Sequence record: PZ019084.1
DNA: 64,000 nt
Direction: 5' to 3' (one strand)
From: a phage
Below the pieces are notes generated by a model. It did no database searches. It saw only the letters and a list, made by a program, of their open reading frames with translations, and had not been told where the DNA came from. Positions 11,082 through 40,911 of this stretch are shown here, one piece after another. How positions within the stretch are numbered: position 1 is the stretch's first letter; the number at the start of each line of letters is the position of its first letter. Position numbers and translations under genes: made by a program.

Positions 11082-11552
11082 TTAATCATGTTTCCACACC
11101 CCATCGGTATTTGACCAAAGTCGCTGATTATCTGATCCTCGCCACAGCTTTTTAGTCGGAAGATTTTTCTCATACTTCCCATCAATAATAACATCAACAT
11201 ATTTAAGCATTTCTAGTTGTTTAATATCTTCAAACTTGTATCCTGTCCACAACCAAATGCTTTTATTTGGATAAAGATTTTTTACCGTTTGAACAATACA
11301 ATGAACAACATCCCGGTTATCAGGATAAAGAGGGTCTCCTCCAGTTATAGTTAATCCTTCTATATAATCATTATTCAAACATTCAATTAATTGTTCTAGT
11401 GTTTCACCAGTGAATGGAACGCCATTTCTAGCATTCCATGTTGATTTATTATAACATCCTTCACATTTATGCAAACACCCCGTAACGAAAAGAACGACCC
11501 TGCATCCAGGGCCATTCACAAAATCACAGGGATAAAATCTATCGTAATTCAT
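11082..11552 (-). CDS. nrdG: Anaerobic ribonucleotide reductase activating protein NrdG (radical SAM)
   Basis: 156 aa; cysteine cluster GCLHKCEGCYNK; same size as T4 NrdG; directly downstream of nrdD. Confidence 0.9.
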   Translation of the reverse strand: MNYDRFYPCDFVNGPGCRVVLFVTGCLHKCEGCYNKSTWNARNGVPFTGETLEQLIECLNNDYIEGLTITGGDPLYPDNRDVVHCIVQTVKNLYPNKSIWLWTGYKFEDIKQLEMLKYVDVIIDGKYEKNLPTKKLWRGSDNQRLWSNTDGVWKHD

Positions 11553-13366
11553 TGGTGTTTAACCCTATGCATGATTTCTTTATTTTTGCCGAGATTAAAT
11601 CCACGTTCATTCGGATTTCCCAAATAACCACAAGTTCTTCTTATTGTGTTCATCTTTTTAGGATCAGTTTCTCCACAAATAGAACAAACAAACCCGTTTT
11701 CAGTAGGAGTCATTTCATGAGTACTTCCGCATGTAAAACATTTATCTACTGGCATATTAACACCAAAATAATCTAAATGTTGTGCAGCATAATCCCAGAC
11801 AGCCTCAAGACCTTTTAGGTTATTTTTCATATCAGGAAGTTCAACATAAGAAATGTGACCACCTGTCGCAATGAAATGATATGGGGCTTCGCGAGAAATC
11901 TTTTCAAACGGGGTGATATTTTCTTCTACTGAAACGTGGAAACTGTTAGTGTACCAGCCTTTATCAGTAACATCCTTTACACTTCCATATTTCTCAGTAT
12001 CAAGTTTACAGAAGCGATAGCACAGGTTTTCAGCAGGAGTAGAATACAAGCTAAAAGCAAAACCGGTTCTTTCAGTCCACTGCTTAAGACGAGCATTCAT
12101 TTTAGTTAAAATTTCCTGTCCAATATCACGACCGACAAGAATATTCAATTCGTGAATACCAATGTATCCTAGGGACACTGAACTTCTACCATTTTTAAAT
12201 AACTCAATTATGTCATCATCAGGTTTAAGACGAACCCCGAATGCACCTTCTTGGTAAAGAATAGGAGCAACAGTCGCTTTAACTCCTTTTAAGGAACTAA
12301 TTCTACACATCAAAGCTTCAAAACACAAATCCATTCGTTCATTGAACAATTCGGCAAATTTCTGTTCATTGAATTGTGTTCCAATATAAGAATCTAACGC
12401 AATACGAGGAAGATTCAGTGTTACAACACCAAGATTATTACGTCCATCAAGAATTTCATTACCAGTCGAATCTTTCCATACGCTCAAGAAACTGCGGCAA
12501 CCCATTGGAGAAACAGGAATAGATGAACCTGTGATAGCTTTATTATTCTTAACTGAAATAATATCAGGATACATTCTTTTGCTTGCGCATTCTAGAGCAA
12601 GCTGCTTAATATCATAGTTCGGATCGTCTTTATAAAGATTGACACCCTCTTCAATGAACATAACAAGTTTAGGGAAAATAGGAGTTATCCCATCACGACC
12701 AAGACCTTTAATACGATTTTTCAGAATTGCCTTCTGAATCATTCGTTCAGTCCAGTCAGTTCCCGTGCCAAACGTAATTGTTACAAAAGGCGTTTGTCCG
12801 TTTGAACTAAAGAGAGTATTTACTTCATATTCATAAGCTTGGAATGCATCGTATACGTCTTTTTCTGTTTTAGATTGGGCATAATTCAAAGCATCAGCGA
12901 TTTGCCATTTTTCTGCATCCTCAATATGTTTTGCATAGGTGCGTTTAACATAAGGAGAAAGTACTTTATCTACATTAGCAAAAGTCGTTCCGCCATACTG
13001 ATGTGAAGCAACCTGTGCGGTAATTTGTGCCATAATTGCAGTAGCAACACCAATCGATTTAGGCGTTTCAATTTGAGCATTACCTAGCTTAAATCCTTTT
13101 TCAAGCATTCCTTTTAAATCTACTAAACAGCAATTAGTAAATGGAAGAGCAGGGGAATAATCAATATCATGAAAATGGATAATTCCGCTTTCATGTGCTT
13201 TCATAATAAAAGACGGGACCATATTTTTGGCAATGTGCTTAGACACAATACCAGCCATAAGGTCCCGTTGAGTTGGAAAAACACGAGAATCTTTATTAGC
13301 ATTCTCGTTTAAAAGGTCTTTATTAGTTTTATGAATCAATCCTTCAATTTCTTTTTCAATTGTCAT
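11549..13366 (-). CDS. nrdD: Anaerobic ribonucleoside-triphosphate reductase NrdD, uninterrupted
   Basis: 605 aa continuous ORF; C-terminal glycyl-radical motif RRTCGYLG and zinc-ribbon cysteines (CFTCGS...CSICG). Confidence 0.9.
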   Translation of the reverse strand: MTIEKEIEGLIHKTNKDLLNENANKDSRVFPTQRDLMAGIVSKHIAKNMVPSFIMKAHESGIIHFHDIDYSPALPFTNCCLVDLKGMLEKGFKLGNAQIETPKSIGVATAIMAQITAQVASHQYGGTTFANVDKVLSPYVKRTYAKHIEDAEKWQIADALNYAQSKTEKDVYDAFQAYEYEVNTLFSSNGQTPFVTITFGTGTDWTERMIQKAILKNRIKGLGRDGITPIFPKLVMFIEEGVNLYKDDPNYDIKQLALECASKRMYPDIISVKNNKAITGSSIPVSPMGCRSFLSVWKDSTGNEILDGRNNLGVVTLNLPRIALDSYIGTQFNEQKFAELFNERMDLCFEALMCRISSLKGVKATVAPILYQEGAFGVRLKPDDDIIELFKNGRSSVSLGYIGIHELNILVGRDIGQEILTKMNARLKQWTERTGFAFSLYSTPAENLCYRFCKLDTEKYGSVKDVTDKGWYTNSFHVSVEENITPFEKISREAPYHFIATGGHISYVELPDMKNNLKGLEAVWDYAAQHLDYFGVNMPVDKCFTCGSTHEMTPTENGFVCSICGETDPKKMNTIRRTCGYLGNPNERGFNLGKNKEIMHRVKHQ

Positions 13367-30021: not shown

Positions 30022-30342
30022 TTATTCTTTAAATCTAATCAATTTATTCATAGACTTTGTAACTTCTGCACGAACCTCATGTAAGTTTTTAAGCTGTTCA
30101 AGACGCTGCTCGTAGTAAGCAATTTCATCTTCTTCGAGACAGTCTTGTGAATCTTCTTTAAGATAACGTGCATAATCCTGGAAAGCTTTACGGACTACTT
30201 CTTGGAAGTCATCAAGACTTTGAATTTTCTTAGGAGCAACAGATACACGACGAGGGGCAGTATAATACTCATAACCAAACCCTGCGCTTAATTGAGCCAT
30301 TAATATTTTTCCTCTGGTTGGAACACAGCACGACAAGCCCAC
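30022..30342 (-). CDS. Hypothetical protein
   Basis: 106 aa ORF. Confidence 0.4.
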
Positions 30343-30566
30343 ATACTAGCTTCTTTGAGTTTCGTTTTAGCAATAGTTAACTGATCGAGGCTTTCAGCAT
30401 AATTCTTTGCGAATTCGCAGTCTTCACAATTATCTAGTGCTTCCCAGAATTCGTCATATAAAGCGTCAAAGATAAGTCCTAAACGAACTTCAGCGTCTTT
30501 GATAGCATTCACTTTACCGATTTTCTCTTCAGTGTGCGGCTTATAACCTTTAATGTCTTCAATCAT
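30300..30566 (-). CDS. Hypothetical small acidic protein (positional candidate for T4 vs.4)
   Basis: 88 aa ORF; assignment by gene order only. Confidence 0.4.
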
Positions 30567-30780
30567 ATTCTACTTCCTCACCAGTACATAAATCATATTC
30601 AACTAAACGAATAGGTTCATGAATGCCATATCCTTGAACAGAAATTTCTGTCGTAGGATAAATTCCATCAATATCACCCATGGTCCACGCTTCATTAAAT
30701 TGCTGTTCGCCTGAATTACTAAACCACTCGGCGAAAGCATTTAACACATCTTTAGAACCTTCAATAATTATCTTTGCCAT
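30559..30780 (-). CDS. Hypothetical small protein
   Basis: 73 aa ORF. Confidence 0.4.
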   Translation of the reverse strand: MAKIIIEGSKDVLNAFAEWFSNSGEQQFNEAWTMGDIDGIYPTTEISVQGYGIHEPIRLVEYDLCTGEEVEYD

Positions 30781-31142
30781 TACAAGCTCTCAGTAAAGGT
30801 ACGAGCGATAACGTCGCGCTGCTGTTCCGGAGTCAGAGAGTTAAAGCGAACTGCATAACCGGATACACGGATGGTCAGCTGCGGATATTTTTCCGGATGC
30901 TTAACTGCATCTTCCAGAGTTTCACGACGCAGAACGTTAACGTTCAGGTGTTGACCACCTTCAATTTTAACTGTAGGCTGTTGTTCAATTTCAATTTCAC
31001 GGGTGTGCAAACCGTAGAAAATTTCTGGGTCTACAAAAGAGTCCTCTTTAAAAGTTTTAGAGACAATAATTCGTGCCTGAATACCATCTTCAAAATAAAT
31101 AGTACCTTTATGTGTGCCTTCAAGAATTTGATATGCTTTCAT
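30780..31142 (-). CDS. Autonomous glycyl-radical cofactor (GrcA/YfiD-like)
   Basis: 120 aa; C-terminal [60 protein letters not shown] matches my memory of E. coli GrcA, including the RVSGY radical motif. Confidence 0.85.
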
Positions 31143-31148
31143 ATAACC

Positions 31149-31481
31149 TCAATTAGAAAATAAATTTATCCAAGACTGTTCTTTAATTAAAAATGGCTCA
31201 GAATCATATGCCATTAAACTTTGGGTGATTAGTCCTTTAAAAGGCCCATCAATAAATTCCATGGTAAAATATGGAATTTTATTCATTAATCTTGCATTAG
31301 GAGCAGTGCACAAAACTCTGCATCCTTTGAATACGCCTTTTTGTAATTTGTATTGCTTAGGATAAAATTCGCTCAAGACGTTGTTATTTGCCAAAATTTC
31401 AAAATGATTCACCAATTTATTTTTAATAGTTTTTGGCGAAAAATAAAGATATTCGAAAAGTTGCGTATCTGTCATCATTGC
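31149..31481 (-). CDS. Hypothetical protein
   Basis: Start set at internal MMTDTQLFEYL to avoid a 55 nt overlap with the upstream gene. Confidence 0.35.
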   Translation of the reverse strand, partial: AMMTDTQLFEYLYFSPKTIKNKLVNHFEILANNNVLSEFYPKQYKLQKGVFKGCRVLCTAPNARLMNKIPYFTMEFIDGPFKGLITQSLMAYDSEPFLIKEQSWINLFSN

Positions 31482-32062
31482 ATTCCAATTACGAAAAACT
31501 GTGGACGAGTAATACCACCAATGCAACATTTACTATTGCAGCAGTGTTGCACAGTTTCAATATGAATATCGTAAATTTTATCCATATCAGGAGATTTAAC
31601 AGGCTCATCGATTATATACAAGATTCGAGAAAGCGATAAACCTCTGAACTTGCTACCTCTATTACCAACAAAACTACGGACAGAATCGGTAAATAAGCGA
31701 AATCGAATATCATCGCTAGAATAACGAGAAAATTCTTTTTTAATGTGGCCCGCAGAAATTTTAGCGTAAGCTGAAGTATTAGAAAGAACAATAACTGTTC
31801 CACCGTCATACAGCCAATTAGCAGCAAAATTAGTCACAGCAGTTGATTTACCAGATTGGCGTCCACCATCTAGTCGAAGTGTACAATATTGTTTAAGCAA
31901 GTCTTCAAATGGTGGGATATAATCGTTTTTACAAATTTCTTCTACTCTAGCATCAGAATGGTGTGTAAAAGCATTCATCAGGGATAGATAAGGACCAGTT
32001 AAAAATGTTCTCATTTTATTCTCTCTAAATTTGGGCCATTCCATGGCGCATGAATTGTCCAT
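31475..32062 (-). CDS. Small P-loop NTPase
   Basis: Walker A GGRQSGKST and Walker B LYIIDEP; true start may be the MRTFLTG Met at 32014 (GAGAGAA RBS). Confidence 0.5.
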   Translation of the reverse strand: MDNSCAMEWPKFRENKMRTFLTGPYLSLMNAFTHHSDARVEEICKNDYIPPFEDLLKQYCTLRLDGGRQSGKSTAVTNFAANWLYDGGTVIVLSNTSAYAKISAGHIKKEFSRYSSDDIRFRLFTDSVRSFVGNRGSKFRGLSLSRILYIIDEPVKSPDMDKIYDIHIETVQHCCNSKCCIGGITRPQFFVIGMQ

Positions 32063-32167
32063 TTCTGTATTTACCCATTACCGCACTTGGGCTCGACCTT
32101 ATTACAGGTTGGCGGGAATCCCTCATAGAATCATGAGGTCCAGCTTGTTCCCATATTTCTTATTTGC

Positions 32168-32641
32168 TTATTTGAATGATTTGACGTACTGAATAGAGCC
32201 TTTGCTATTCACGAAAGCGATTTTACCATTTTTATTATACATGGTAGCAGTACGCTGATAACCATAAGTTTGCTTACCAGATTGATAACCAACTAATGCA
32301 AAATTATCTTCACCCATTTTATTCTGTTTAGCGCGGATGCGTTCATGACCGTGTGCCATAAGAACCTTAGCGTCGCCAGTTGCAATGGATCTACGAGTTT
32401 TTTCATCTTCAACTGTATTAACAAAATCGTCAAATGAATCAAATTTAGCATGGGATTTATTATACAGTTTTCCATCTACTGCATAATTATATCCTTGTAC
32501 ATCCATCTCAACTTCTGTACCGTCATCCAATACAGCAGTGATTTTTTGACCTTTTTTAAATTTCAAAAGATCAGTAAAAGATTCAGCAATAATTTGAGAA
32601 TTAATAGCTGCTTCAGTAATAAATTCTTGGTATGTTTTCAT
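32168..32641 (-). CDS. Internal protein with capsid targeting sequence (ipII locus)
   Basis: 157 aa; N-terminus MKTYQEFITEA is the T4 CTS pattern; located between ipIII and the position where denV would be. Confidence 0.6.
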   Translation of the reverse strand: MKTYQEFITEAAINSQIIAESFTDLLKFKKGQKITAVLDDGTEVEMDVQGYNYAVDGKLYNKSHAKFDSFDDFVNTVEDEKTRRSIATGDAKVLMAHGHERIRAKQNKMGEDNFALVGYQSGKQTYGYQRTATMYNKNGKIAFVNSKGSIQYVKSFK

Positions 32642-32747
32642 GTATATCCTTTAAATGTAAATAATTTTATTCTTTAAGTTTGGGACAATTCACACATGAA
32701 TTGTCCATTTCTGTATTTATCTATTACCGAGTTCGGACTTGGCTTTA

Positions 32748-33397: not shown

Positions 33398-33928
<531 letters not shown>

Positions 33929-39889: not shown

Positions 39890-39965
39890 TGGTCGAGGCA
39901 GTAGGGATCGAACCTACGACCTAGGACTTAGAAGGTCCTTGCTCTTCCTTCTGAGCTATGCCCCG
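39890..39965 (-). tRNA. tRNA-Arg (anticodon TCT)
   Basis: Minus strand folds as cloverleaf: acceptor CGGGGCA/TGCCTCG, anticodon loop CTTCTAA, T-arm GGTTCGATCC, CCA encoded. Confidence 0.8.
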
Positions 39966-40046
39966 TAATTGGGGTGACCGATGGGAGTCGAACCCATGAC
40001 TACGAGAATCACAATCTCGAGTTCTACCAACTGAACTACGGCCACA
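39966..40046 (-). tRNA. tRNA-His (anticodon GTG)
   Basis: Acceptor GTGGCCG/CGGTCAC, D-arm GTTCAGTTGGTAGAAC, anticodon loop TTGTGAT, T-arm GGGTTCGACTCCC, CCA encoded; no encoded G-1. The tRNA itself is approximately 39971-40046. Confidence 0.6.
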
Positions 40047-40159
40047 TTAATACCTACTCCAACAATCAAGATGTCTTCACACGAAATTAAGAGAAGAGTG
40101 ATCAGTTCAACCCCTATAATCGCGTCAAGTAGATATTAATGTGACAGTTGTCACAAATT

Positions 40160-40234
40160 TGGCGGACGTGATAGGATTCGAACCTATAACCAATCGCTTA
40201 ACAGGCGATCGCTCTGCCATTGAGCTACACATCC
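40160..40234 (-). tRNA. tRNA-Asn (anticodon GTT)
   Basis: Acceptor GGATGTG/CACGTCC, anticodon stem ATCGC/GCGAT with loop CTGTTAA, T-arm AGGTTCGAATCCT, CCA encoded. Confidence 0.7.
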
Positions 40235-40238
40235 AAAT

Positions 40239-40325
40239 TGGTGGGGAGTGATGGAGTCGAACCACCCGAGTCGCAATGACAATGGATTTACAGTCCACAC
40301 CGCTACCTCTACGGGATAACTCCCC
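40239..40325 (-). tRNA. tRNA-Tyr (anticodon GTA), long variable arm
   Basis: Acceptor GGGGAGT/ACTCCCC, anticodon loop CTGTAAA, long variable arm, T-arm GGTGGTTCGACTCCATC, CCA encoded. Confidence 0.65.
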
Positions 40326-40338
40326 TTAATTCTTAATT

Positions 40339-40413
40339 TGGTGGCCCTGGGTGGAATTGAACCACCATCTGGCGATTATGAGTCGCTTGCTTGAACCTTC
40401 CAGCTACAGGGCC
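40339..40413 (-). tRNA. tRNA with CAT anticodon (Ile, as in T4, or Met)
   Basis: Acceptor GGCCCTG/CAGGGCC, anticodon loop CTCATAA, T-arm GGTGGTTCAATTCCACC, CCA encoded; position matches T4 tRNA-Ile. Confidence 0.65.
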
Positions 40414-40414
40414 T

Positions 40415-40490
40415 TGGTGCTGATTGACGGAATCGAACCGCCGACCTTCTCATTACAAGTGAGTTGCTCTACCTACTGAGCTAAATCAGC
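40415..40490 (-). tRNA. tRNA-Thr (anticodon TGT)
   Basis: Acceptor GCTGATT/AATCAGC, D-arm GCTCAGTAGGTAGAGC, anticodon loop CTTGTAA, T-arm GGCGGTTCGATTCCGTC, CCA encoded. Confidence 0.8.
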
Positions 40491-40495
40491 AAAAC

Positions 40496-40585
40496 TGGCG
40501 GAGGCGATAGGATTTGAACCTATGAGTCGCCGGAGCGACTGCCGGTTTTCAAGACCGGTGCATTAAACCACTCTGCCACGCCTCC
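40496..40585 (-). tRNA. tRNA-Ser (anticodon TGA), long variable arm
   Basis: Acceptor GGAGGCG/CGCCTCC, anticodon stem CCGGT/ACCGG with loop CTTGAAA, long variable arm, T-arm AGGTTCAAATCCT. Confidence 0.8.
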
Positions 40586-40587
40586 AG

Positions 40588-40661
40588 TCTCCATACAAGG
40601 ATTTGAACCTTGGACCTCCTGATCCCAAATCAGGCGCTCTACCAAACTGAGCTACACGGAG
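40588..40661 (-). tRNA. tRNA-Pro (anticodon TGG), CCA not encoded
   Basis: Acceptor CTCCGTG/TATGGAG, anticodon stem CCTGA/TCAGG with loop TTTGGGA, T-arm AAGGTTCAAATCCTT. Confidence 0.75.
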
Positions 40662-40671
40662 TAAATTAAAT

Positions 40672-40745
<74 letters not shown>

Positions 40746-40750
40746 AAATT

Positions 40751-40837
40751 TGGTGCGAGAAGTGGGACTCGAACCCACAAGGAAATCATTCCGCAGCATT
40801 TTAAGTGCTGTGCCTTTACCAATTTGACCATTCTCGC
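40751..40837 (-). tRNA. tRNA-Leu (anticodon TAA), long variable arm
   Basis: Acceptor GCGAGAA/TTCTCGC, anticodon loop CTTAAAA, long variable arm, T-arm GGGTTCGAGTCCC, CCA encoded. Confidence 0.8.
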
Positions 40838-40838
40838 G

Positions 40839-40911
40839 CTGGGAATAAAGGACTTGAACCTTTGCATCCTGGAATCAAAATCCAGTGCCTTACCAACTTG
40901 GCTAATTCCCA
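40839..40911 (-). tRNA. tRNA-Gln (anticodon TTG), CCA not encoded
   Basis: Acceptor TGGGAAT/ATTCCCA, anticodon stem CTGGA/TCCAG with loop TTTTGAT, T-arm AAGGTTCAAGTCCTT. Confidence 0.75.

Follow-up and report, generated by a model that had tools for sequence, protein, structure and literature searches.

How did the 3' half of a small gene in a lytic, T4-type phage come to look like that of its host, and what does the gene do? The question is raised by vs.6, a 120-codon gene in the 64-kb stretch of DNA analysed here (64,000 nucleotides of a Tequatrovirus genome, sequence record PZ019084.1), hereafter called the window. An initial annotation, made from the letters alone, had read the gene as a GrcA-like glycyl radical protein with a C-terminus that appeared identical to that of E. 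coli.

vs.6 and its neighbourhood

The interval occupied by vs.6 corresponds to exactly one ORF with its own start and stop codons (Table 1). The encoded protein matches the Pfam Gly_radical domain (PF01228, E 2.4e-18), and this C-terminal domain contains the PFL-type RVSGYAV loop. The top PDB match is GrcA (6OWR, E 9e-42). Next comes the C-terminal part of PFL, residues 697-759 of which (1H16) match the radical domain with an E value of 4.9e-26. Of the features of the GrcA/YfiD family (TIGR04365, IPR011140), the phage protein has the small stand-alone format (about 120-130 aa), the radical domain, and, with the weak homology described below, the N-terminal half. The protein scored 155 bits against the GrcA equivalog TIGR04365, for a cut-off of 170, with an alignment covering positions 25-126 of the 126 profile positions.

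The window protein shares 117 of its 120 residues (97.5%) with T4 NP_049730.1 (T4p117), a product that RefSeq names 'autonomous glycyl radical cofactor GrcA' and whose gene lies between vs.7 and vs.5. In SwissProt, this T4 Vs.6 protein bears the name Y06I. The gene order vs.8-vs.7-vs.6-vs.5-vs.4-vs.3-regB is the same in the window and in T4, and both the high identity and the position between vs.7 and vs.5 place the gene in the T4 vs.6 orthologous group of the Straboviridae. It is one of a series of small genes that run leftward in this T4-type genome, with regB, vs.1, vs, and tk downstream and the T4 lysozyme gene e also present in the window, and about 10 kb around it are 94-96.5% identical to the Tequatrovirus-type phages Shfl2, EP01, and pSs-1. 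Thus, the window gene is the ortholog of T4 vs.6, a gene already known together with its function, and the Pfam match, the 6OWR match, and this orthology confirm that the protein is GrcA-like. A promoter and terminator scan stayed at chance level (8 sites for 7.8 expected), and we infer the expression of window vs.6 from that of T4.

Table 1. Coordinates of vs.6, its segments, and other features of the window
Feature	Coordinates	Strand	Basis or remark
vs.6 (Y06I) CDS, predicted autonomous glycyl radical cofactor, GrcA homolog	30780..31142	-	ORF; 120 aa + stop
Phage-type 5' half of vs.6, AT-rich, codons 1-59/60	30965..31142	-	hhalign; nucleotide identity
E. coli grcA-identical tract, 175 nt	30790..30964	-	longest exact run and alignments
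Phage-type 10-nt tail (GAG AGC TTG TAA)	30780..30789	-	alignment
vs.7, upstream neighbour	31149..31478	-	synteny; dS vs Mosigvirus >1
vs.5, downstream neighbour	30559..30780	-	ATG start overlaps vs.6 stop (TAATG)
vs.4, two places downstream of vs.6	30300..30566	-	Pfam Acb2_Tad1_hairpin, E 7e-20
vs.8 match	32126..32031 and 32062..31478		split over two frames (region 31475..32700)
157-aa ORF in the place of denV	32168..32641		internal-protein-like N-terminus, MKTYQEFI
T4 lysozyme gene e	33398..33892		
Cluster of 11 tRNA genes	39890..40911	-	Arg, His, Asn, Tyr, Met, Thr, Ser, Pro, Gly, Leu, Gln
tRNA-Tyr region matching E. coli records	about 40236..40329		megablast, ~90%
nrdD	11549..13366		
nrdG	11082..11552		

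Three neighbouring regions can be mentioned in passing. vs.4 encodes the known anti-CBASS cyclic-nucleotide sponge Acb2 and differs from its Mosigvirus ortholog by about 34%, with a dS above 2. The vs.5 product is 73 aa long in the window, 74 aa in Mosigviruses, and 58 aa in the T4 RefSeq record (L002, 7382..7558), where the gene is shortened by a frame-shifting 1-nt indel (gctttcgCcgag vs gctttcg-cgag) corresponding either to a real frameshift or to an old sequencing error. Finally, tblastn detected no homolog of denV (endonuclease V) in the 64-kb window; the place that this gene occupies in T4, between vs.8 and ipII, is taken by an ORF whose product is 31% identical to IpII, and the vs.8 match itself is split.

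A 175-nt tract identical to host grcA

The alignment of vs.6 to E. coli grcA, at both the protein and the DNA level, bears out the proposed identity of the C-terminus. The last 60 residues of the phage protein are identical to those of E. coli GrcA (60/60), and at the DNA level the longest exact run extends over 175 nt, from gene position 179 to 353, corresponding to E. coli grcA nt 200-374 and to phage codons 60-118. The product of this tract is the structured radical domain with the RVSGY glycine loop, indicating that the whole C-terminal domain, beyond the short radical motif, is common with GrcA, and a match of this kind greatly exceeds what chance would give. The 3' 185 nt of the gene (positions 179-363) have a grcA match in each of the 5426 complete E. 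coli genomes, at 95-99% identity, the best being 98.9%.

Both edges of the tract are sharp. Directly upstream of the run, identity to E. coli grcA falls to 43-47%, while downstream the tail reads GAG AGC TTG TAA, as compared to GAA AGC CTG TAA in E. coli, with two synonymous changes. This tail varies among Tequatrovirus, Mosigvirus, and Jiaodavirus, whereas the tract is the same in Tequatrovirus and Mosigvirus, with no fixed difference. The tract has a GC content of 49% and a GC3 of 45%, as compared to a GC3 of 42-43% in E. coli grcA, 22% in the 5' half of vs.6, and 22-33% in the neighbouring phage genes, and AT-rich phage-type sequence borders it on both sides. In a megablast search against the 5426 E. 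coli genomes, it was the sole protein-coding match of the 64-kb window. The other match to E. coli records was the tRNA-Tyr region, partly on plasmids; the window carries a cluster of 11 tRNA genes. We also considered that non-coding sequence flanking host grcA might have been captured, and rejected it: the 7-10 nt match seen past the stop in Mosigviruses arises by chance from a gapped alignment with the beginning of vs.5.

The N-terminal half differs, as initially described. Taken alone, the first 60 aa gave no family match in NCBIfam. By hhalign, residues 2-60 were aligned with residues 3-67 of bacterial GrcA (probability 93%, E 3.5e-7, 29% identity over 59 columns), a weak homology with full-length coverage, seen only when profile is compared with profile. 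The MKAYQILEG N-terminus is kept across Straboviridae homologs. In YfiD, residues 1-60 are disordered and promote both the binding to cleaved PFL and the installation of the radical, and residues 61-127 form a structured domain duplicating PFL 693-759 (PMC8683613). The conversion tract thus corresponds to the structured domain. Judged by the sequence of its two halves, vs.6 is an old phage homolog of grcA bearing a young patch and not a fusion.

Could the match be due to protein constraint? The initial annotation had left the choice between a relatively recent capture from the host and a strong constraint exerted by host partners. We compared 80 bacterial grcA loci. Over its last 183 nt, E. 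coli grcA is 98.9% identical to that of another Escherichia species, 92.9% to that of Citrobacter amalonaticus (the maximum reached in other Enterobacteriaceae), 87-91% to those of Pectobacterium, Serratia, and Edwardsiella, and 84% to that of Salmonella. The radical domains of Citrobacter, Pectobacterium, Serratia, and Edwardsiella nonetheless show 0 aa differences from E. coli, so that bacterial orthologs encoding the same 60 aa have DNA that is only 87-93% identical, i.e. 7-13% of their nucleotides differ. Synonymous sites therefore drift freely, constraint on the protein alone cannot explain a match of 175 nt, and the allele carried in the phage tract is specifically that of Escherichia. 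An ancient and single capture of grcA, kept identical solely by purifying selection from PflB and PflA, would fit with the extreme conservation of the domain as a protein, several genera having no aa difference from E. coli. It is nevertheless extremely improbable in view of these bacterial sequences, of the phage homologs from other hosts, which keep the protein with DNA that is 75-85% identical, and of the absence of any change over 175 nt in the window although synonymous sites are free and the flanks are saturated between phage genera.

Neither pflB nor tdcE can be the donor, since their DNA is only 70-80% identical to the tract, which leaves grcA. A transfer in the opposite direction, from phage to host, was rejected on three grounds: the 5' and 3' halves of E. 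coli grcA are equally near those of Escherichia sp. MOD1 (99.0% and 98.9%), the tract has a host-like GC3, and the phage variants are GC-to-AT derivatives of host alleles. Base composition and allele relationships thus point to a transfer from host to phage. An artefact from host reads or a chimeric assembly, for which we found nothing specific, has a negligible probability, as hundreds of independent genomes, the T4 and RB69 reference sequences among them, contain this in-frame mosaic with identical boundaries. The recent capture first proposed is therefore upheld at the nucleotide level and, at the same time, confined to a conversion tract of 175 nt within a phage homolog that is itself older.

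Age of the tract and its relation to host genus

In order to place the tract in time, the window was compared with the Mosigviruses RPN187, RB69, and WFL6982. vs.7, vs.5, and vs.4 are about 30% different, with a dS above 1, while the 5' half of vs.6 is 10-11% different (18-20 differences), with a dS of 0.33-0.37. The tract shows 0, 2, and 5 differences to the three phages, and the 10-nt tail 2-4. The differences observed within the tract in T4, RB69, phiEC1, and WFL6982 are private to single phages, except for position 219, which RB69 and phiEC1 have in common; most of these departures from the E. coli sequence are GC to AT, and a few are non-synonymous. We asked whether the WFL6982 variants could be alternative E. 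coli alleles, but none of the variant bases matched, indicating that they arose in the phage. Thus, the entry of the tract into these lineages, or its resetting there, postdates the divergence of the 5' halves of Tequatrovirus and Mosigvirus.

Two further observations concern this comparison. The 5' half of vs.6 is far less diverged than the flanks on either side (30300..30780 and 31149..31478), and the whole of vs.6 may have been exchanged between phage genera, perhaps by recombination seeded by the host-identical tract. Besides, the T4 RefSeq sequence (NC_000866) carries an R72H change within the tract (CGT>CAT, codon 73, gene position 218), while the T4 records T4T, KJ477684, and MT984581 have just the two tail mismatches to E. 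coli and appear to lack the R>H change; the RefSeq base is either a strain variant or a reference error.

Homologs of the vs.6 type were found in 1515 of 50,697 phage records. Those with a MKAYQILEG-type N-terminus include Straboviridae of Klebsiella, Citrobacter, Enterobacter, Providencia, and Aeromonas as well as T5-like Salmonella phages, and for most of these phages the 3' half reaches no more than 75-85% identity to the bacteria sampled. This is the case for the Slopekvirus, Pseudotevenvirus, Providencia, Aeromonas, and T5-like homologs, for which no close host match was present among the sampled bacteria. Across the database, identity to the E. coli tract reaches at least 95% in 639 phage records, and 106 records match the tract of K. 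pneumoniae at 95-99%, the reference for the latter being one allele taken from a chromosome mislabelled as a plasmid in PLSDB.

The K. pneumoniae and E. coli tracts are 87.4% identical, providing 22 diagnostic sites. The window and Mosigvirus RPN187 are E. coli-like at all 22 of them, whereas 17-19 of these sites are Klebsiella-like in the Jiaodaviruses Nispero, PSE-D1, and KPV15. The tracts of these three phages differ from K. pneumoniae at 6 of 175 nt, with exact runs of 101-140 nt, and they encode two Klebsiella-specific residues (LLDAVEHP vs LEDAVKHP in E. coli). The Jiaodavirus tract has the same 5' edge as that of the Escherichia phages and is followed by a phage-type tail, GAG GCA CTA TAA. 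The presence of the E. coli allele in Escherichia phages and of the Klebsiella allele in Jiaodaviruses requires two or more independent transfers from host to phage that share one 5' boundary. A further comparison concerns Roth21, whose 5' half differs from those of Nispero and PSE-D1 at only 2-4 of 178 nt and whose tract differs at 13-15 of 175. As 14 of the 17 differences between the Roth21 tract and K. pneumoniae are GC to AT, it looks like an older, decayed tract, that of Nispero and PSE-D1 being freshly converted.

Recurrent host-to-phage gene conversion is the explanation that these patterns favour. Within one host genus, independent conversions and the phage-to-phage spread of a converted tract are inseparable. 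A history with fewer events, in which one Escherichia and one Klebsiella conversion were followed by the spread of the tract or the gene from phage to phage while conversion by the host is not ongoing, is possible, although we consider it rather doubtful. The low dS of the 5' half as compared to its flanks suggests indeed that the gene moved between phage lineages and, within Mosigvirus, private changes in the tract accumulate at least at the pace of the 5' half (2-8 vs 1-4), with no visible resetting. However, the tract has no fixed difference between the two genera of Escherichia phages although the tail and the 5' half have them, Roth21 combines a 5' half nearly the same as that of Nispero and PSE-D1 with a very different tract, and at position 354 T4 agrees with E. 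coli, unlike the window and the Mosigviruses, a hint that the tracts may end at different points. In its strongest form, recurrent conversion would mean that the radical half of vs.6 evolves in concert with host grcA, lytic recombination repeatedly resetting about 175 nt to the current allele of the host genus (Escherichia or Klebsiella) with AT decay in between; to this we give an even chance.

Several records met during this survey call for a comment. The RefSeq genome of KPV15 (L096, 521..883) has a frameshift in the 5' half of vs.6, for which it lists two short CDSs, and an intact Klebsiella-like tract; the gene is possibly a pseudogene, or the frameshift a sequencing error. In T5-like Demerecviridae and in T4-like Aeromonas phages, a GrcA homolog lies beside tRNA genes, outside the vs region, for example in the Salmonella T5-like phage GEC_vB_N5 (L009, 420..788) and in Aeromonas phage 31 (L008, 417..785). 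The radical domain of these homologs is about 76% identical to any sampled bacterium, and they appear to be separate older acquisitions or relocations. Lastly, some 'plasmid' records of PLSDB/GenBank are whole or partial chromosomes (CP125156.1, L094; LR134122.1, L095; and L031), one example of such mislabelling being a 5.37-Mb K. pneumoniae 'plasmid unnamed2' that contains grcA.

Function, proposed conversion, and comparison with known systems

PMC8683613, which cites Wagner et al. 2001, describes only two validated spare-part proteins, E. coli YfiD and T4 Y06I. According to the same text, PFL activase installs a glycyl radical on T4 Y06I in vitro, and activated Y06I forms a complex with oxygen-cleaved PFL in vitro, restoring its activity (PMC8683613, citing Wagner et al. 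2001). Since the window protein is 97.5% identical to T4 Y06I, it is expected to rescue PFL in the same manner. By analogy with T4, host PflA would put the glycyl radical on the RVSGY loop of window vs.6, and the protein would then dock on host PFL whose radical C-terminal domain has been cut off by oxygen, bringing PFL activity back. As T4-type phages shut off host transcription, host grcA would presumably no longer be inducible, and the phage copy could keep host PFL, and with it the fermentative output of acetyl-CoA and ATP, going when oxygen enters during a microaerobic, gut-like infection. Our literature search returned no evidence on the in vivo role of vs.6 during infection.

The initial annotation had described vs.6 as encoded together with NrdD and its activase NrdG, suggesting that the phage maintains glycyl radical enzymes during infection. 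This link is not supported: nrdD and nrdG are present in the same window, but 17.4 kb away, and the NrdD loop, RRTCGYLG, has another context than the IRVSGYAV found in vs.6, GrcA, and PFL. That vs.6 services phage NrdD, with its activase NrdG, and not host PFL is highly improbable for the same reasons, to which are added the nature of its radical domain, which is that of GrcA with the PFL C-terminus as nearest relative, and the published activity, which is with PFL and PFL-AE. It can be said for such a role that oxygen cleaves every glycyl radical enzyme in the same way and that other spare parts have been speculated upon (PMC8683613). In a 2006 comparative paper, a role of vs.6 in nucleotide metabolism was a speculation from the shared Pfam domain only.

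Another possibility is that vs.6 acts as a decoy or modulator, soaking up PflA or occupying PFL in order to redirect host metabolism. The strong divergence of the N-terminal half, which in YfiD governs the binding to cleaved PFL and the efficiency of activation, could be viewed in this light. We regard this role as very unlikely, since the rescue of cleaved PFL by Y06I is reported in PMC8683613 and since the catalytic half is kept identical to that of a functional host protein.

Taken together, vs.6 is very probably a GrcA-type spare part whose 3' half was overwritten by recombination with host grcA. The patch structure of the gene, its host specificity, and the relative youth of the tract are apparent from the sequences compared. 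For the pathway, T4 recombination biology suggests that host DNA fragments carrying grcA could serve as donors for recombination-dependent repair or replication, homologous recombination during infection then overwriting the 3' half of vs.6. The conversion tract would be confined to the region in which the phage and host genes can be aligned. Conversion took place one or more times from each of Escherichia and Klebsiella and was probably repeated, each converted tract decaying afterwards by GC-to-AT substitutions. Moreover, an identical tract would be an even better recombination substrate afterwards.

The interest of vs.6 lies in this evolutionary pattern and not in the gene itself. It offers a clean natural case in which a strictly lytic phage that degrades host DNA would copy a short piece of its host into an existing homolog. 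The pattern recurs for two or more host genera, its boundaries being the same, and the GC-to-AT decay from a known start could be used as a measurable clock, the tract providing a testable assay for host-to-phage recombination. If evolution in concert with host grcA is confirmed, vs.6 would represent recurrent natural conversion from a host to virulent phages, which might keep the spare part matched to host PflB and PflA. Furthermore, the retention of vs.6 in more than 1500 genomes of Enterobacteria phages, both T4-like and T5-like, argues that a living host PFL matters for phage yield in oxygen-fluctuating, gut-like conditions. We did not find the nucleotide-level identity of the tract, or its conversion, in the searchable literature, although it may have been remarked before.

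Among the systems to which vs.6 can be compared, T4 Vs.6 is the nearest, with the same length, the same neighbourhood, and the E. coli-identical tract, the window protein differing by three substitutions, of which the R72H position of the T4 RefSeq record is one. E. coli GrcA/YfiD (P68066; NMR structure 6OWR) is likewise a stand-alone protein of about 14 kDa with the RVSGY loop, and its C-terminal 60 aa and the 175 nt are the same. However, GrcA exceeds the phage protein by 7 aa in length, the N-terminal halves are only about 29% identical, that of the phage being AT-rich in its coding sequence, and vs.6 is part of a phage early-region gene string whereas E. coli grcA is found at the ung-grcA locus. 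The C-terminal radical domain of PflB (residues about 693-759; 1H16) has the same fold element and loop as vs.6, but belongs to a 759-aa enzyme, and its DNA identity to the tract is 70-80%. GrcA2 and GrcA3 (NF008341 and NF038360; about 80 aa) have the radical domain in common with vs.6 and are devoid of the N-terminal half that vs.6 keeps; vs.6 scores far below the cut-offs of both.

As for the conversion itself, its closest counterpart is marker rescue in T4, in which the phage recombination machinery uses short stretches of homologous DNA within the infected cell as templates and copies them into phage genomes as these replicate. Such marker rescue, or plasmid-phage recombination, is the mechanism that we propose for the tract. 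Unlike in marker rescue, it is the host chromosome that would act as donor, under natural conditions, and the outcome would be fixed in whole phage genera.
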